IMG/VR virus record: IMGVR_UViG_2737471857_000022
DNA length: 36,183 nt
From: a virus
Lineage: Duplodnaviria; Heunggongvirae; Uroviricota; Caudoviricetes
Reading direction: 5' to 3' (one strand)
The notes under the pieces are model-generated. The model did no database searches, was not told where the DNA came from, and saw nothing but the letters and a program-made list of their open reading frames with translations. Shown one piece after another: positions 3,296 to 19,097 of the stretch (positions within the stretch are counted from its first letter, which is position 1; each line of letters opens with the position of its first letter). The translations under genes and the position numbers were made by a program.

Positions 3296-3478
3296 TCAGT
3301 AAACCTCTGCGGTTATCTTTACTTTAATGTCATACTTCTTTAAGAGTTTATGAAAGGTTGATTTATCGATACCCTCATTTTTAAACCACTCTTCAATTCT
3401 CACACCCGGCGTTAACTCAAAGTAGCGTTTAGCCATTTCTAAGATGATTTCGCGAGTGAACTTAACAGGTCGTGCCAT
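3296..3478 (-). CDS. small HTH DNA-binding protein (60 aa), Hin/resolvase-type HTH-like
   Basis: AGGAGG SD 5 nt upstream; ARPVKFT...GIDKSTFHKLLKKYDIK resembles a GRPxK-type HTH; paralogous to CDS 6886..7113. Confidence 0.55.
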   Translation of the reverse strand: MARPVKFTREIILEMAKRYFELTPGVRIEEWFKNEGIDKSTFHKLLKKYDIKVKITAEVY

Positions 3479-3994
3479 CTCGAATCCTCCTACAATGTGG
3501 ATTAATGATTTCTTAAAAAAGAGCGTTAACCGCTCACTATTATTTATATGGGGATTGTATTTTATTTTTCAACCCCTCACATTTATCTCTTATATATGTA
3601 TTTACAACAGAGATATGTTAAAATGTTATTCAGATGTTATCAGGCGTGTTAAATGTGTTAAACCACAGCACGAATTGCTAAAGCGAAGAACACGATTTAA
3701 CCAAATTGATGTATATTCAATCAATTTAGAAAAAGGCATAGCACTTTTTGCTAAAGCGGTGAGCATTAATTGAGCTATGAATTGTAAAGATTTGTTACAA
3801 GATTTTCTCTCAGATCCAAATCTTCACAGACATATAACAATTTAACAGAAGGATAACAATAGGAAGGAAAATCGGTAAATTTTCACTTTCAATACAAATA
3901 TTATGACATATTTATCTCTAATTTTCAAGTATACCACTGTTCCTGCACAGTGTCAACAAAGGACTTTCAAACCTACACTAGCCCTACACTATGA

Positions 3995-11880: not shown

Positions 11881-13884
11881 ATGCTTAAATTTCGCCGCGA
11901 TCTTAACGGTTACGGTGGAGTTATTAACGAAGGGCATAACGATCAATACGAATTTGAAATTGCTTTCTCAAGTACACAGCCTTATCAGCGCCAATTTTGG
12001 GATGAGCAAAATCAAGAAATGGTGGTATTAGATGAAATTCTGGTACATACACCGGAAGCGGTTGATCTGTCTCGTCTGAATAATAACGCTCCGTTGCTGT
12101 TCAATCATAATTTCGATAATCACATTGGTGTAGTCTGCGACGCTCGAATCGATGCGGATAACGTAGGCCGTGCTCTGGTTAAATTCTCTAAGCATGGCAC
12201 TTTGGCTAATGATATTCGCAATAAAGTCATTGAAGGTACGATGGAAAAAATTTCTGTCGGTTATGACATTAAAGAATATCACATCGACTACACCAAAGGG
12301 CAATTGATTGTTACTAAGTGGGCGCCTTTTGAAATTTCATTTGTGACGGTTCCCGCAGACGATTCGGTCGGTTTAAATCGCTCTCTAAATACTATCACAG
12401 TTAATTTGGGGGCTAAACGCGATATGACTAAAGAACAAATCGAAGAAATCAAAGAAGAACAAGAACCCGCTCAGGTTGAAGAAACTCCGGTAGAAGAAAA
12501 TAAAGAACCGAAAGTTGAAGAAACTCAAGAGCGCCAAGTTGAAGAGAATAAAGAAGATGAAAATCTCGAAGACGGAAAAGACGCTAAACATCCTGAAAGT
12601 GTTGATGATGATAGTTCAACTGTTCGGGAAACAGAAGAAGTAAAAGAAGAACGTGAAGCCGCTCCGGTTGAAGAAGAAAAAACCGAAGAAGTGGCTGAAC
12701 GTTCCGAAGAAGACGAAGAAGAAATCCGAGCAATCGCGCGGGAACTAAATATTGACGACGAAGAATTGAAACGCGCATTGGCAATTAAAGACATGACGCC
12801 GGAAGCATTCCGCACTAAGGCACTAAATAATCTCGTCAATGCTCAACGTAATAACGAACAAATTAAGGACTCTAAAATGGAAAAAACTTTTGACCTGAAC
12901 AACGTAATTCGCTCTCTGGTAGATGGTGAAGCTCTGGGTGCTAACGAAGCCGAGTTTTCTGCAATGGCTGCTACTGCAACTATGCAGCGTGGTCGTGCTG
13001 CTCGCGGTGGCTCTGTATTCGTTCCGACTGCTGCTATGCGTGCTGCTGCTGATGGTAACACCAAAGCTACTCTGACCGCTGTAACCGACGAAAAACTGCT
13101 GAATGATTCCTATGTAGCGATGCTGTTGCCGGAATCCGTTCTGGGTCGTCTTGGTGTGAAAGTCCTGTCTGGTCTGACTTCGCCGACCGCTATTCCTAAA
13201 ATGACCGCTTCCAGCGTTGAATCTTTCGGCTTCGTTGATGAAAACGGTGCTGCGCCGGAAGGTAAAGCTGAATTTGCAAACGTGAAAATGGCTCCTAAGA
13301 CGTTTGCTGGTGGGAATCCGATCAGCAGAGCTAGCCTCAAGACCGTACCCGGCATCGCTACCCTGATCACTGATCACATTAACCAGGCTGTTCGCATCAA
13401 ACTGGAACAACTGATTCTGTCCGACAAAGAAAATGCTCGTGGTCCGGCTGGTGTGATTAAACAACTGGTAGATGCTGGTCGCGTAGAGAAGAAAGCTGCT
13501 TTCTCTTATAAAGACTTCCTGAAAGAAATTGCTAAACTGACCGACGCTGGCGTTCCTGCTCAGGCGATCAAGTTTGCAATGAGCGGTGCAACTGCTGCTG
13601 AACTGGAATCTACCCTGAAAGATAACGGTGTTTCCGGTTATATCATCGAAAACGGTAAACTGGCTGGTTACGACGTAGTTACTTCTGGTGTTATTCCGGT
13701 AGACCACATCGTTCTGGGATCGTTCGACGCTATTACCATCGGTGAATGGGGTGGTCTGGAACTTGACATTGATGACACTACCTACCGCGCACAGTCTGCT
13801 ATCGTTCCGCGTATCTGGGTAGATCTGGATTACGTTGTAACCCAGCCGGAAGCGCTGAAAGTTCTTCACATCTCCGCTGAATGA
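11881..13884 (+). CDS. single polypeptide fusing prohead protease (HK97 gp4-like), acidic scaffold/delta linker and HK97-fold major capsid protein (667 aa)
   Basis: N-terminal 170 aa carry protease-like motifs (LLFNHNFDNHIG, ISVGYDIKEY, EISFVTVPADD). Residues about 180-300 are Glu/Lys-rich low complexity. The C-terminal 340 aa are capsid-like. Confidence 0.8.
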   Translation: MLKFRRDLNGYGGVINEGHNDQYEFEIAFSSTQPYQRQFWDEQNQEMVVLDEILVHTPEAVDLSRLNNNAPLLFNHNFDNHIGVVCDARIDADNVGRALVKFSKHGTLANDIRNKVIEGTMEKISVGYDIKEYHIDYTKGQLIVTKWAPFEISFVTVPADDSVGLNRSLNTITVNLGAKRDMTKEQIEEIKEEQEPAQVEETPVEENKEPKVEETQERQVEENKEDENLEDGKDAKHPESVDDDSSTVRETEEVKEEREAAPVEEEKTEEVAERSEEDEEEIRAIARELNIDDEELKRALAIKDMTPEAFRTKALNNLVNAQRNNEQIKDSKMEKTFDLNNVIRSLVDGEALGANEAEFSAMAATATMQRGRAARGGSVFVPTAAMRAAADGNTKATLTAVTDEKLLNDSYVAMLLPESVLGRLGVKVLSGLTSPTAIPKMTASSVESFGFVDENGAAPEGKAEFANVKMAPKTFAGGNPISRASLKTVPGIATLITDHINQAVRIKLEQLILSDKENARGPAGVIKQLVDAGRVEKKAAFSYKDFLKEIAKLTDAGVPAQAIKFAMSGATAAELESTLKDNGVSGYIIENGKLAGYDVVTSGVIPVDHIVLGSFDAITIGEWGGLELDIDDTTYRAQSAIVPRIWVDLDYVVTQPEALKVLHISAE

Positions 13885-13905
13885 ACTCCTGTAGAACCAT
13901 CTGAA

Positions 13906-13927
13906 CCTTCCCCCAAATCGGGGGAAG
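13906..13927 (+). other. perfect hairpin CTTCCCCC-AAAT-CGGGGGAAG, 22 nt after the capsid TGA stop
   Basis: 8-bp stem; lies inside an in-frame stop-free stretch following the capsid stop codon. Confidence 0.45.
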
Positions 13928-14018
13928 AAAATCTGATTCCTAAACCGGAAGAAGAATCCCAGACGGTTACGGCGAAAGCCACAGTTAAAAAACAGCGTAA
14001 AACTAAAGAATAATAATT

Positions 14019-14046
14019 AGCCCTGCCTAACGGTGGGGCTTTTTTG
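14019..14046 (+). terminator. terminator-like hairpin plus T6 after the capsid gene
   Basis: AGCCC...GGGGCT followed by TTTTTTG. Confidence 0.5.
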
Positions 14047-14075
14047 TATGTAAATACTCCATAAAGGGGGTAACT

Positions 14076-14366
14076 ATGTTCAAATTATCAGAATCACAAT
14101 TATCAAGAATGTTTAAGAGTGCTCCTGTATTTTCGGTGGAAGGTGGTAAATCAATTCGTGCTTATCATGAAATTACTACTACCGACGAACAAGGGGTAAT
14201 GACAGAAACAGAATTTCTATTTTGTCGTGAGGGAGACTTAAAGCAAGGTGATATTGTCATTGTAGAAAATCAGCGTTTCAAAGTTCAATACGTTAAGCGC
14301 AATGGTGACAATACTTGTGATTGCTTTATCACTTTAGCAGGGGGTACACATGCTCGCTACCGTTAA
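14076..14366 (+). CDS. head-tail joining protein, lambda FII-like (96 aa)
   Basis: C-terminal LKQGDIVIVENQRFKVQYVKRNGDNTCDCFITLAG resembles lambda FII (LRRGDTLTIGEENFWVDRVSPDDGGSCHLWLG, recalled). Confidence 0.55.
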   Translation: MFKLSESQLSRMFKSAPVFSVEGGKSIRAYHEITTTDEQGVMTETEFLFCREGDLKQGDIVIVENQRFKVQYVKRNGDNTCDCFITLAGGTHARYR

Positions 14367-14772
14367 TAATATGCCGAGACTGAAAATCAAACGCGCCTTG
14401 CAAGATATTATCGAACAAGATTTAGGTCTGGCTTTAAACGTAGAACAAACTCAGCAAGGCTTTAGTGATGACGTGGTTTGTTGGATTACTGGCATGAATG
14501 AAACTTATACGCGTGTTCGTGGTGGTAATGCAATGCAAGCTGAATGCGTTATCGAAATGCAGTTATATTCTCAGATTCATGAAACGAAAATTCATGAGGG
14601 TATTTGCCAGATAATCCAGATTCAGCCAGATAACCCACGATTTAAAGATTTGGGCTTCTCTATTTCAGATATCACTCCAGTAGCTTCTAATACCGATTAT
14701 GACGATGATTCTAGTGATGGGGGTATCGTTGGGACACTTAGCCTTAAATTTTCTTATCTAGCGCGTTTTTAA
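14350..14772 (+). CDS. tail terminator, lambda gpU-like (140 aa)
   Basis: GGGGG SD; DVVCWITGMNETYT...QAECVIEMQL and C-terminal DYDDDSSDG resemble gpU (recalled). Confidence 0.5.
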   Translation: MLATVNNMPRLKIKRALQDIIEQDLGLALNVEQTQQGFSDDVVCWITGMNETYTRVRGGNAMQAECVIEMQLYSQIHETKIHEGICQIIQIQPDNPRFKDLGFSISDITPVASNTDYDDDSSDGGIVGTLSLKFSYLARF

Positions 14773-14781
14773 GGGGTAATA

Positions 14782-15615
14782 ATGAATATTACACAAGATA
14801 ACTTAGACATTTTCACGGGGTCGCATGTTGAAGTCTCCGTGTCTACTATGGTGGATAACCAGCCGGACTTTTTCGATCCTGCATTTAGTCCTATCGAGAA
14901 CATCGCAGCATTCCCGACGATAACCGAATCCACAGAGATCCAGACGTTAGAAGAGTATGATCAGGACGCTACTGGTAAACTTGCTGGCTATCGTAAACTT
15001 GAATCAACTACGTTAGTAGTAAACCGTGTTCTGGATGACGAACATCAAGACATGTTGATGAAAGCGGTGAATGATAAAACTCCTTTACGCTTTCGTATGT
15101 TCTATGTTGTGAACTCTGGTTACAGTGCTGCTAACACAGGTTACTACGTCATTTTTGACGCTTATGTCTCGTCACATAAAACAAAATCCGGTGATAACAA
15201 AGTTACTACAATCGAGTTTAAATTAGAACCTGATGGCGGGATTCTAGATCGCGGTATTGCTACCGAAGGCCGGATCTTACGTCAGGGTGATTTTGGTTTG
15301 GGTGCTGGTGTAAATCCATTCACGGGTCCGATTGATAGCGAAGCATTAGCCGGAAACCGTTTCGTAACCTATCAGGGATCGAGCGCATCTAACCCATTTA
15401 GTGCTGATACTTCACTAATTCACGTTCAACCTAATGAAGATGGTGGATGGCAATTAACTTGCACCGCTTCTGGTGCACCACGTTTACGAGTTCGCACAGT
15501 CCAGAAAGACGGTAATTCTGGATGGGTGAAATTGTATTCCACAGAAGAAAAACCGACACCAGCCGAGATTGAAGCCGTTTCTATCCATGACCGGATCGAT
15601 TTCGGGGAATACTGA
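14782..15615 (+). CDS. tail-tube paralogue with about 110 aa C-terminal extension (277 aa); candidate fibre-attachment collar/ring protein
   Basis: N-terminal 165 aa align with CDS 20097..20567 (DIFTGS/DIFSGG, IAAFP/CAAFP, KLAGY.../KLVGR...). C-terminus has KPTPAEIEAVS, also found in the fibre. Confidence 0.6.
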   Translation: MNITQDNLDIFTGSHVEVSVSTMVDNQPDFFDPAFSPIENIAAFPTITESTEIQTLEEYDQDATGKLAGYRKLESTTLVVNRVLDDEHQDMLMKAVNDKTPLRFRMFYVVNSGYSAANTGYYVIFDAYVSSHKTKSGDNKVTTIEFKLEPDGGILDRGIATEGRILRQGDFGLGAGVNPFTGPIDSEALAGNRFVTYQGSSASNPFSADTSLIHVQPNEDGGWQLTCTASGAPRLRVRTVQKDGNSGWVKLYSTEEKPTPAEIEAVSIHDRIDFGEY

Positions 15616-15686: not shown

Positions 15687-18600
15687 ATGCAATCAATCCA
15701 ATTTAAACGAACTAATGTTTCTGGCAAAAAACCAACGCCGGAACAATTACAGGTCGGTGAGGTAGCAATCAACCTTAAAGACCATGTTATTTTTACCAAA
15801 GACCGAGATCATGAAGTAGTTCAAATCTCTGTTTCTCCTGAAACTCACGCGGCACTAGAATCTAAAGTTGATGCTAACAAACAAGAACTAGATAGCACAA
15901 TTGCAGTAAATGACCGCAATATTCACGCTAAAGTAGATGAAATTAAACAAACTACTGATGCAACCATCGCAGCAAATCACGCAGAAATTAACAATAAAGT
16001 TGATGTAATTAAACGCGAAACCGACGCGACAATCGAGGCCAATAAAAATAAAGCTGCTTCCGACCTTGCTGGTGTTAAAGCTGAATTGTCGGATACCATC
16101 AACGCTAATAAAAATGCGGCTGCTGTAGCAACTCAGGAACTGGACACCCGCATCAATAAAAAAGTTGATGATATTAAATCCCGCACCGATGCAACCATCG
16201 CAAGCAATGACAAAGCAATCAATGACAAGGTTGATTTGATTAAGGCAGAAACTGACCGCACTATCGCAGCAAATAAAGTCTATGCGGAAAATCAGTTAAC
16301 TGACACCTACAATAACCTTACTGGTGTGATTGCAGCCAATAAGCAAGAGGCAGCGGATAACGTCGCAGCATTAACCCGTGATGTTGAAGCCAAAAATACA
16401 GCAATTCATAGCAAAATTGACAACAACAAGGTTTACACTGATTCTGAATTGGCACGCTTAGAAAGCCGTATTGATGCAGCCGATGGATCTGCTGATGGCA
16501 AGTACATCAAAAAACACGTAAACACTTATACTGATGGTTATTTGCTGTCTAAGACCGCAAACTATTTTGATGATCCAAGTGCGCGTAATCTTGATTACTT
16601 TGGTGCATTCCGTATGAATGACCTAGCGGGTCATATTGCTTTAGCGTTACATGTTCCGCATCCATCCGGCGTTAATCATGCTCGTGGTTTTGAGTTCACT
16701 TATGGGTCTAATCCACATGCTACGGTAAGAACATACGGCTATGATGAATTGGGTCATTTGGCATATTCTCACCGCATGTATCATGAAGGTGATAAACCTA
16801 CTCCGGCTGAAATTGGCGCATATTCGAAAGCAGAAATTGACCGCCTGTTCCAGAAGACGCTTAATTTTGGTATCGAGGGCGGTTGGTTTAAACTAGGCAC
16901 TTTGACAATGCCACAGCAACACGGTCGCACCGCTAAGATCCGTTTGGTTGGTGGTAACGGTTATAACGTCGGGATGAATGGACAAGCCAATATTATCGAA
17001 TTGGTGATTCGATGCGGCAACAATAGCCCGAAAGGTGTTGTATTCAATGCTTATTATAGCATCTGGTATCACGAACAACATTTTTGTGCAATTCCTACCG
17101 ATGGTGATAATTACGATCTTTACGCTTACTATGGTGCACATACAGGATTTGTTTTAGCAGAATATCAAGTTTCTTCCGGTGGTGTTTCTTTAAACCTGTT
17201 GGATACTCCTGAATACCTGGGCGGTGAAAAACCTGTTGCAGATGAAATTTTTGATGCTCTTAACATTTCATCGTTCAATAACTTTAGCAACCGTGGAACG
17301 TTAAATTTTGGCGGAAACCATCAAGGCCAATATGATATTGAGCATTTGAACGAACAACAAACAAATGCTAAAAAGATGTTGCGTCGCTTCCGTAGTTCTG
17401 CTCCTGCCACTATCTGGCATGAAACTGTTGATGATAACGCATATCGTCTTGCTACTGGATACGAAGATACAAATCAGGAATTATTACTGACAGCAACAAC
17501 CGGATTACATATCAAGAAATTAACATTGGATGGCGGTGTTGGTGGAAATTCTGGTATTGATATTCGTCGAGGACCAAATGAAGCAAGCCATTTTAATTTC
17601 ATGGATTATCGCACTGGTCAAGATGTTCGTAATGGCTGGTTTGGTTTTGGTGACGGTCAGACGAAAGATTTTATTTGGTGGAACGATAACGGTCAAAACT
17701 CAATCAACCTGATCGAAAACGGTGAATTGCATATTACTGGTGGTAAAGGCCAGAAAATTGTAATGAATAGCGAAGTTGCATTGTCTGAAAATGCTCGTTT
17801 GGCTGTCAAAGGCGGTAACTATGGTTTGATTTTACGCAATGATGGTTCTGGTTTCCATATTCTTACTACCAATTTAAAAGATTCTTTTGGTAGTTGGAAT
17901 AATCGCAGACCATTCAGTTATGATTTTGCGGACGGTGGATTATATTTAGGTGGTACTGAAACCGCTCGGTGTTTACATCTGGGGATTGATGGTAGCACTC
18001 GTCTTGAAGACAACCTGTTCTTTAAAGCTGGTTCTCGTCAATCTATGGACTATATGGAACTCGTCCATTGGGGGGCAAGCAATACAGGTCGAAATAACGT
18101 TTTAAGTCTTCGTGACTCAAAAGGATTTTTCGCAGAATTTGAAAGATTGGGTGATAATACCATTAAAAACTCCTTCTTTGGTAAACTTAAAATTAATCGC
18201 GGATCTGATGCAATTATCATGAATGCCGAAAGTGGTGATTCTTCTGTATATTTGTTGGGTACGTGTGCTGATAACAATAATTGGTATATCGGTAAAGGCG
18301 GCGCTGATAATGGATTGGCGTTCTATAGTTATGCTACTAATGCTGCTGTAAACATTACAAACGCGGGGGATATCGCTCTAAGTCCAAAAGGCATCGAAAT
18401 GACTCATGTCAATAACGTTCGATTCTATGTTCATGGTGAACGTTGGACTGCTAGCCAATCTGGAGGTTGGAACGACCAGTGGGGATTAGAAGCGCCGATA
18501 TTTGTCGATCATGGTTATGTTTCACCGGACTGTTATTACCCAATTATTAAAGGAAGAAGTTTAATCACCAATCAAGGGTATACAACTGCCGTCGATTTTG

Positions 18601-19097
18601 GTCTGCGTCGTGTTCCTAATGCATGGGGACAAGCAATTATTCGCGTTGGATCTGCGGAGGCATCGCCAGCGGCTGGTCATCCTCAAGCTGTATTCGAGTT
18701 CCATCATGATGGTACTTTTTACTGTCCTGGTAATGGTAACTTTAACGATGTTTATATTCGTTCCGATCGTCGTCTGAAAATTAATGTTGAAGATTACGAA
18801 GAAAATGCGGTGGATAAGGTAAATAAACTCAAAGTTAAAACCTACGATAAAGTTAAATCTCTTAATGACCGAGAAGTTATAGGTCATGAGATTGGTATTA
18901 TCGCACAGGATTTACAAGAGGTATTACCGGAAGCTGTTAAAACCGCAAAAATTGGTGGTTTTGATAACCCAGAAGAAATTTTAACAATTTCAAACTCCGC
19001 AGTGAACGCGCTTTTAATTAAAGCGGTCCAAGAAATGAGCGAAGAAAATAAACTTCTTCGTGAACGTCTTGCTGCAATTGAAGCTAAATTAGGGTAA
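15687..19097 (+). CDS. side (L-shaped-type) tail fibre with C-terminal intramolecular chaperone domain, T5 pb1-like (1136 aa)
   Basis: Four about 22-aa repeats (xIxxKVDxIKxxTDATIxAN) at aa 77-200. C-terminal 110 aa (YIRS/DRRLK...GIIAQDLQEVLPEAVK...NSAVNALLIKAV) resemble the S74-type chaperone of T5 pb1 and endosialidases (recalled). Confidence 0.85.
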   Translation: MQSIQFKRTNVSGKKPTPEQLQVGEVAINLKDHVIFTKDRDHEVVQISVSPETHAALESKVDANKQELDSTIAVNDRNIHAKVDEIKQTTDATIAANHAEINNKVDVIKRETDATIEANKNKAASDLAGVKAELSDTINANKNAAAVATQELDTRINKKVDDIKSRTDATIASNDKAINDKVDLIKAETDRTIAANKVYAENQLTDTYNNLTGVIAANKQEAADNVAALTRDVEAKNTAIHSKIDNNKVYTDSELARLESRIDAADGSADGKYIKKHVNTYTDGYLLSKTANYFDDPSARNLDYFGAFRMNDLAGHIALALHVPHPSGVNHARGFEFTYGSNPHATVRTYGYDELGHLAYSHRMYHEGDKPTPAEIGAYSKAEIDRLFQKTLNFGIEGGWFKLGTLTMPQQHGRTAKIRLVGGNGYNVGMNGQANIIELVIRCGNNSPKGVVFNAYYSIWYHEQHFCAIPTDGDNYDLYAYYGAHTGFVLAEYQVSSGGVSLNLLDTPEYLGGEKPVADEIFDALNISSFNNFSNRGTLNFGGNHQGQYDIEHLNEQQTNAKKMLRRFRSSAPATIWHETVDDNAYRLATGYEDTNQELLLTATTGLHIKKLTLDGGVGGNSGIDIRRGPNEASHFNFMDYRTGQDVRNGWFGFGDGQTKDFIWWNDNGQNSINLIENGELHITGGKGQKIVMNSEVALSENARLAVKGGNYGLILRNDGSGFHILTTNLKDSFGSWNNRRPFSYDFADGGLYLGGTETARCLHLGIDGSTRLEDNLFFKAGSRQSMDYMELVHWGASNTGRNNVLSLRDSKGFFAEFERLGDNTIKNSFFGKLKINRGSDAIIMNAESGDSSVYLLGTCADNNNWYIGKGGADNGLAFYSYATNAAVNITNAGDIALSPKGIEMTHVNNVRFYVHGERWTASQSGGWNDQWGLEAPIFVDHGYVSPDCYYPIIKGRSLITNQGYTTAVDFGLRRVPNAWGQAIIRVGSAEASPAAGHPQAVFEFHHDGTFYCPGNGNFNDVYIRSDRRLKINVEDYEENAVDKVNKLKVKTYDKVKSLNDREVIGHEIGIIAQDLQEVLPEAVKTAKIGGFDNPEEILTISNSAVNALLIKAVQEMSEENKLLRERLAAIEAKLG

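Follow-up and report, generated by a model that had tools for sequence, protein, structure and literature searches.

A Conserved In-Frame Extension behind the UGA Stop of an E. coli Prophage Capsid Gene, a Candidate for Selected Readthrough

Results

The viral DNA stretch IMGVR_UViG_2737471857_000022 (36,183 nt, called here, at its full length, the window) is a complete E. coli prophage of low GC content (about 41%), and its major capsid gene ends in a UGA that is followed by A, by 42 further sense codons in the same frame, and by a tandem UAA UAA. Comparison with related prophages suggests that the UGA is read through under selection to give a minor capsid isoform with a short C-terminal tail, which we favor as the probable reading of this arrangement. 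The anatomy given in a preliminary description of this DNA, with TGA at 13882-13884, 42 sense codons, TAA TAA at 14011-14016, and a perfect hairpin with an 8-bp stem lying 22 nt past the stop, was confirmed, the hairpin falling at 13907-13927 (Table 1). The peptide encoded by the 42 sense codons (13885-14010) is TPVEPSEPSPKSGEENLIPKPEEESQTVTAKATVKKQRKTKE, in which an acidic Pro/Glu-rich spacer precedes a Lys-rich basic end.

Conservation of the Frame behind the UGA

Related loci were drawn from IMG/VR, metagenomes, NCBI/Logan contigs, and complete E. coli genomes. The 93 loci obtained come from about 60 independent E. coli/Shigella contigs or genomes and comprise 31 distinct stop-to-stop haplotypes. 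The TGA is followed by A in all 93, frame 0 runs on unbroken for 27, 28, 33, 42, 43, 44, or 45 codons, and each extension is terminated by a tandem stop. No stop or frameshift lies inside the extension in any of the 93 loci (31 haplotypes), so that the test of open-frame conservation in relatives, proposed in the preliminary description, was run and passed. Frames +1 and +2 after the TGA are closed in every locus tested. Six indels account for the differences in length, each of them divisible by 3 (42, 27, 3, 3, 3, and 3 nt), and no change of ±1 was found among the related loci in the A5-A6 runs of the extension. TGA-A likewise closes a capsid allele whose overall identity is only 37%, and the same tail follows it in frame. 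For this allele, a capsid fusion found in E. coli PE15 (L128, 124-2196) and also in L126 and L127, the adjoining tail, terminator, and downstream genes are nearly those of the window.

Parts of the extension have been exchanged for non-homologous blocks, and the open frame and the character of the peptide are kept. Across alleles the acidic, Pro-rich front reads EPSEPSPDLGEENLIPEPEEE or EELPEEIP, and the basic end reads KKQRKTKE, KKERKTKAK, KKVGRPPKAK(E), or KRGRKPKE; three unrelated 3′ blocks all encode such Lys/Arg-rich ends. The foremost alternative, to which we give a lesser though appreciable chance, is that the stretch is an untranslated structured 3′ untranslated region (UTR) of the abundant capsid mRNA and the open frame a by-product; three or four stem-loops and the terminator would then shield the 3′ end, mark a site of processing, or give rise to a small RNA derived from the 3′ UTR. 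A structured UTR leaves it unexplained that all six indels come in multiples of 3 (rough chance (1/3)^6), that the swapped blocks never carry a stop in frame 0 and always do in frames +1 and +2, and that three unrelated 3′ blocks encode Lys/Arg-rich ends. We also considered a decaying relic, in which an ancestral fused tail was cut off by a nonsense mutation to TGA and its remainder has yet to degenerate. Fused tails do occur in sister clades, and the ratio of nonsynonymous to synonymous polymorphism (pN/pS) is near 1, as a relic would have it. Nevertheless, this explanation is improbable: the nucleotide diversity of the extension, 0.12-0.16, is as high as that of the capsid gene; block replacements and six indels have left 0 stops or frameshifts in 31 haplotypes; and the TGA has never drifted to TAA, the preferred stop of the phage.

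That preference is marked. TAA ends 32 of the 35 open reading frames (ORFs) in the window and TGA only three, and a UGA on the capsid gene, the most expressed gene of the phage, is atypical. The only other ORFs ending in TGA are those at 3444-3773 and 14782-15615, with the contexts TGAG and TGAT; the remaining 32 end in TAA. UGA is the leakiest of the three stops. UGA-A has been described as a weak binder of release factor 2 (RF2) (PMC5373646). Neither the universal UGA-A in a phage that otherwise uses TAA nor the tandem stop is explained by a structured UTR.

Tails of Sister Prophages

Sister E. coli prophages, whose capsid proteins are 41-55% identical to that of the window and all end at TAA, fall into two groups. 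In the first, a short Lys/Ala/Pro-rich tail is fused in frame after the conserved ...RLFLYEK (for example, GTPAEVKAALKASA, GTPAEAPAEAKAGK, GEAEAGETRKAK, or QPAGAEAKSKA), and in most members the terminator lies 12-24 nt past the stop. In the second, the stop comes 2-4 codons past EK and a spacer of 38-115 nt leads up to the terminator. Here no stop interrupts the −1 frame between the Lys codons and the end of the spacer, and this frame would encode the basic tails TGAQAAPVRKPRALKVTK, TGEQASPAKVKKPRALKVK, TGVQKTPIKKARAQKSVK, RKAKAKAKAKAETAE, or ...AAPVKKSKSASG. The run of Lys codons is an in-phase A_AAA_AAG in L075, L097, and L098, A8 in L074, and A_AAG in PSS-15 and phage DCP80. A two-part, covarying hairpin begins 0-3 nt after the TAA, and its inner stems differ wholly between variants (CAGGAGCA/UGCUCCUG, CAGGAGAA/UUCUCCUG, GGUCUU/AAGACC, and GGGGUU/GACCCC). 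We regard this second group as a candidate for a −1 frameshift like that of T7 10A/10B, unannotated in RefSeq. The slippery heptamer and −1-frame extension of the T7 arrangement were found only in these sister clades and not in the window family.

Among the sister clades, only those without the fused tail have the spacer. This is the pattern expected if the spacer encodes a tail, and it is unexpected for a plain 3′ UTR and left unexplained by a structured one. The fused or −1-frame tails of the sister clades, as read from their genes, support a translated and selected extension in the window family.

RNA Structure of the Extension

The extension folds at −36.1 kcal/mol, compared with −17.7 kcal/mol for shuffled sequences (z = −5.5), and all variants give z values of −4.7 to −6.1. 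The outer helix starts 10 nt after the UGA and in the long alleles encloses hairpins 1 and 2. Hairpin 1 is formed by CTTCCCCC (13907-13914) and GGGGGAAG (13920-13927) around the loop AAATC, with a folding energy of −14.4 kcal/mol. A role for this hairpin as a required element is not supported: it is one arm of a larger structure, and the 27/28-codon variants lack it. In those variants the first part of the structure is replaced by an unlike hairpin of 11 bp, which also starts 10 nt past the UGA. The loop of hairpin 2 reads TAAACC, TGAACC, ATCTCA, or TGAGCC, and the in-frame 27-nt deletion in L127 removes this hairpin. The 8-bp hairpin was rejected as an intrinsic terminator, since AAAAUCUG follows it and not a U-run; the real terminator is at 14019-14046. 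From 14002 to 14094, a segment that takes in the terminator, the spacer, and the next gene's ribosome-binding site, the sequence is almost invariant (π 0.003-0.03, against 0.03-0.2 in the flanks). The loop of hairpin 1 in the window (13915-13919) is the exact reverse complement of the GATTT present in nearly all other long haplotypes (one has GATTC), a change that turns PDL into PKS and keeps the frame; such inversion of the loop of a perfect hairpin is a signature of template switching.

Several observations weigh against selected readthrough. The pN/pS in frame 0 is 0.86, no lower than in the other frames; variable sites are distributed over the three codon positions as 11/17/17 in the extension and as 81/60/209 in the capsid gene; and on substitutions alone the avoidance of stops is weak (P about 0.12). 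A coding substitution signature, as in an extension of the Qβ A1 type, was not found, and only the GR(P/K)P motif is mostly synonymous, its differences lying mostly at third positions (GGA/GGT/GGC, CGT/CGC, and CCA/CCG/CCT). The antisense frame is open as well, in 31 of 33 loci. In the RNA, paired columns are invariant and variation is concentrated in the loops. Two compensatory pairs, GGC/GCC to GGA/UCC (L132, hairpin 3) and GGUGG/CCACC to GGCGG/CCGCC, sit in hairpins 3 and 4, one of them at the cost of two amino acid changes (AKA to EKS), and a covariation score as high as that observed was reached by only 4 of 500 shuffles. Selection at the RNA level is, on these patterns, real and could explain part of the conservation. 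The divergent 37% allele is not fully independent evidence, since the mosaic junction lies within a few nucleotides of the TGA and the tail travels with the downstream module. Readthrough in bacteria is moreover rare, and the products that arise from nudL and pheL by readthrough are undetectable in cells with wild-type RF2 (PMC5373646).

A structured UTR gains from many of these same points, namely the strong folding of every variant, the invariant pairs with variable loops, the compensatory changes, the pN/pS of about 0.86, and the linkage of the stretch to the downstream module, and sister clades likewise have covarying hairpins right after the TAA. On the other side, no Rfam family matches the stretch (best scores 13-21 bits against thresholds of 37-137, and nothing at E up to 10). 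A disordered tail that is also bound to preserve an RNA structure could plausibly show a pN/pS near 1. The proposal of readthrough in the preliminary description is partly supported, by conservation and by the sister tails; the pN/pS of 0.86 speaks the other way, with no purifying selection at the protein level. We favor selected readthrough because the UTR explanation leaves the indels, the open blocks, the UGA-A, the tandem stop, the basic ends, and the sister tails without an account. Two marks of the Qβ A1 arrangement are present in the window family: a conserved, putatively leaky UGA on the coat gene and a downstream frame 0 that is kept open, with indels in multiples of 3.

The argument depends on the relatives of the window. 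From the frequency of stop trinucleotides in the window (0.0585), the probability of 42 open codons is 0.079, and by empirical count 6.9% of all stop trinucleotides in the window precede at least 42 open codons; the 10-15% estimated in the preliminary description was slightly generous. Perfect 8-bp hairpins with loops of 3-8 nt number six in the window, where 4.2 are expected, and the hairpin was rejected as a feature that beats chance. The open frame and the hairpin, each taken alone in one sequence, are not beyond chance, and the excess over chance comes only from the comparison with relatives and from the energy with which the stretch folds as a whole (z = −5.5).

Capsid Gene, Annotation, and Host Range

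The capsid gene is a 667-aa ORF (11881-13884, stop TGA at 13882-13884) that matches the prohead serine protease family PF04586 at residues 40-162 and the HK97-type capsid family PF05065 at residues 409-663. The linker between protease and capsid (12400-12800 of the window, about residues 180-300) is extremely acidic, with a long Glu/Lys-rich run, and is presumably a built-in scaffold. The closest solved structure is the capsid protein of roseophage R4C (8gta), whose end falls within 2 residues of the end of the window ORF; the capsid fold is therefore complete at the TGA, the 42 codons being an addition to it. The gene that follows begins at 14076. Further downstream, 15687-19097 encodes a 1136-aa fiber protein with a T4 gp34-type trimerization domain and a C-terminal endosialidase-chaperone S74 domain. 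Its gene has an unusual position, between the head-completion genes and the tail tube gene, which could indicate a head or neck fiber.

The tail was not reported by any gene caller, and the RefSeq annotation of the stretch is blank. None of the 162 homologous protein clusters from Escherichia, Shigella, and E. albertii reads through the stop as sense, and a query with the tail only had no match among 5.8 billion protein clusters. Among 5,426 complete E. coli genomes, 56 have matches to the structural genes of the window, with identities of 88-95%. Examples of lysogens are strains ETEC4085, UTAK-14, and PK8568, in the last of which the prophage adjoins hicB/yncJ. In species-representative genomes, no match to the prophage was obtained by protein scan or DNA-pattern scan; the prophage is strain-specific and was located in complete E. 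coli genomes instead. The phage collection holds no close relative by DNA or protein, the best being DCP80 at 43%, and no cultured phage of the window family.

Table 1. Features of the capsid gene, its extension, and the sister loci
Feature	Position	Strand	Basis
Prohead protease/acidic scaffold/HK97-fold major capsid fusion gene, 667 codons	11881-13881	+	ORF, Pfam
UGA stop and next base A (UGA-A), proposed recoding site	13882-13885	+	TGAA in 93/93 related loci
42-codon in-frame extension	13885-14010	+	frame open in all 31 haplotypes
Outer helix of multibranch structure, AACC.UCUG (13895-13903) pairing with CAGA.GGUU (13960-13968)	13895-13968	+	folding
Hairpin 1, perfect 8 bp, loop 13915-13919	13907-13927	+	stem invariant in all long haplotypes
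Hairpin 2, UCU..UUCC/GGAA..AGA, hypervariable loop	13932-13955	+	stems invariant
Hairpin 3, GGC-GAAA-GCC, GNRA tetraloop	13971-13980	+	compensatory change in L132
Tandem stop TAA TAA closing the extension	14011-14016	+	sequence; TAATAA in 91 related loci, TGATAA in 2
Intrinsic terminator, 9-pair stem, T6 run, 3 nt after tandem stop	14019-14046	+	nearly invariant, π 0.003-0.03
−1-frame tail loci of sister prophages (candidate)	L075 2470-2578; L076 2467-2581; L097 2170-2278; L116 865-985; L035 (phage DCP80) 3400-3545		41-43% capsid identity

Other Explanations of the Open Frame

An independent small protein could be made from a non-AUG start, with GGGGGAAG serving as Shine-Dalgarno sequence ahead of CUG 13933 or AUU 13936, or from an antisense ORF at 13866-13982. 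A GGGGG motif similar to the next gene's ribosome-binding site does stand 5-8 nt before the in-frame CTG/ATT, and the antisense frame −0 is open in the 31 of 33 loci mentioned above. We nevertheless consider such a protein very improbable. There is no conserved ATG, GTG, or TTG; hairpin 1 buries the GGGGG motif, which the 27/28-codon variants lack; the open frame is preserved right from the TGA, as would be unnecessary for an internal start; the antisense ORF has stops in two loci and is shortened by the 42-nt deletion; and no database protein matches the peptide.

Decoding of the UGA as selenocysteine, with the downstream hairpin as a selenocysteine insertion sequence (SECIS), is the least credible of the explanations, to the point of being negligible, even though E. 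coli has the machinery and a hairpin does lie downstream of the UGA. A bacterial SECIS is a conserved stem-loop immediately 3′ of the UGA with a SelB-binding loop, which is defined by a bulged U and a conserved G-U loop. No such element was found in the window: the hairpin starts 22 nt downstream, lacks the bulged U and the conserved G-U loop, has its loop inverted to AAAUC, and is absent in the short variants, and Rfam gave no SECIS match even at E = 10.

Other ways of using or bypassing the stop were rejected. Reinitiation at the ATG that overlaps the stop (ATGA) lacks conservation and would yield no more than 2-7 codons, a +4 hop between GAA and GAA would bring the ribosome into frame +1, which is closed, and an alternative genetic code is at odds with the long ORFs of the window, which are intact under table 11. 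ARAGORN found no suppressor tRNA in the window. Its single call, a 91-nt tRNA-Glu at 14537-14627 (−), lies on the opposite strand inside ORF 14350-14772 and is probably a false positive.

Discussion

If the UGA is read through as we propose, RF2 would compete with a near-cognate tRNA at UGA-A (13882-13885), so that most ribosomes would terminate there and a small fraction would insert a near-cognate amino acid, most likely Trp. The latter would add 27-45 residues across the family (42 in the window) before terminating at the UAA UAA pair that lies shortly ahead of the terminator. The minor isoform would then consist of the complete HK97-fold protein with a flexible tail, present on a few subunits per capsid, and its N-terminal protease-scaffold part would be removed in maturation, as in other fused capsid genes. 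Tryptic peptides predicted for the extended form of the window are VLHISAE[W/C]TPVEPSEPSPK and SGEENLIPKPEEESQTVTAK. The RNA structure that begins 10 nt past the UGA may raise the rate of readthrough, or it may only stabilize the mRNA. As a stimulator it could act from an offset, 10 nt after the A-site codon, that is comparable to the 12-13 nt of the sister frameshift arrangement. Translation of the stretch, insertion of Trp, and stimulation of readthrough by the structure are steps that we infer.

The tail itself would combine the acidic Pro/Glu-rich spacer with a Lys/Arg-rich tip, which in some alleles holds an AT-hook-like GRPP or RGRKP, and it is probably disordered. The HK97 fold has an outward-facing C-terminus in T7 10B, the P22 coat protein, and encapsulins. 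By analogy, the tail would be exposed on the exterior surface of the capsid. Weak binding of polyanions such as DNA, LPS, or mucus is a suggested function, though not an established one.

Two capsid proteins made from one gene by recoding are known in tailed phages only through frameshifting, and through readthrough only in the RNA phage Qβ. The minor coat protein A1 of Qβ arises by UGA readthrough at about 5% (PMC7026636, Table 1). Qβ shares with the window the host, a coat gene with a single UGA, leaky in Qβ and proposed to be so here, an in-frame extension behind it, and, as predicted for the window, a few extended subunits per capsid. Its stop context is reportedly also UGA followed by A. 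It differs in being a single-stranded RNA levivirus with an unrelated coat fold and a folded extension of ~200 aa that is needed for infectivity and whose product is proven, whereas the extension in the window family is 27-45 aa long, probably disordered, placed on the HK97-fold capsid of a double-stranded DNA (dsDNA) tailed prophage, and its product is a predicted one.

Frameshifting gives rise to capsid isoforms in several tailed phages, by a −1 shift in T7/T3 (10A/10B), Lactobacillus A2, and Listeria A118/A500 and by a +1 shift in PSA (PMC5009743). As we propose for the window, recoding in these phages takes place at the 3′ end of the capsid gene and yields a short form as the major product and, as the minor one, a form with a C-terminal extension, and the extension of T7, like that of the window, is not an Ig-like domain. 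In contrast to theirs, the tail of the window lies in frame 0 behind a stop, the −1 and +1 frames are closed, and there is no slippery heptamer. Taken as readthrough, the arrangement in the window works like Qβ A1 and serves the same end as the T7-type frameshifts, and it is a member of neither group.

Readthrough of the luteovirus/polerovirus capsid extension and of MuLV gag-pol is stimulated by 3′ RNA structure (PMC9553062, PMC4178896). These systems resemble the window, on our reading of it, in having a leaky stop, a short spacer, a conserved RNA structure, and a minor extended product; unlike the window, their ribosomes and release factors are eukaryotic, their stops are UAG, and their extensions are long. 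On bacterial ribosomes, no case of readthrough stimulated by RNA structure is known to us. Adventitious UGA readthrough occurs in E. coli K-12 at nudL and pheL and depends on the weak RF2 allele of K-12 (PMC5373646). There, too, UGA (including UGA-A) is read by a near-cognate tRNA and the extensions are short. Those cases bear no sign of selection, whereas the frame of the extension described here is conserved across many natural isolates. A literature search found no readthrough-derived capsid isoform in a tailed phage, and the readthrough table of a recoding review lists Qβ A1 as the only phage case and B. subtilis SacB as the only bacterial gene (PMC7026636, Table 1).

Two wider proposals go beyond readthrough in the window family. 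As a tentative suggestion, possible yet against the balance of our own expectations, one supergroup of E. coli prophages would use three interchangeable routes to a basic capsid tail, namely constitutive fusion, −1 frameshifting, and (in the window family) programmed UGA readthrough, with a conserved mRNA structure 10-13 nt past the recoding site stimulating the recoded forms. If so, this would be the first RNA-structure-stimulated readthrough on bacterial ribosomes. Considerably more doubtful is a regulatory role, in which ribosomes that read through and stop 3 nt before the terminator could cover its 5′ arm, so that the leak rate would set transcription into the downstream head-completion and tail genes.

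Were the stretch to act as RNA only, the outcome would be a capsid gene followed by a structured 3′ UTR that is conserved, a less surprising result. If, on the other hand, the UGA is read through under selection as we favor, programmed readthrough would extend to dsDNA phages, with a first case in a tailed one. The family would then offer a natural system in E. coli in which to ask whether termination by RF2 can be tuned by RNA structure on the 3′ side, and a setting in which three recoding solutions replace one another in close relatives. It would also mean that a product of 27-45 aa from a common E. coli/Shigella prophage has been missed by annotation pipelines.

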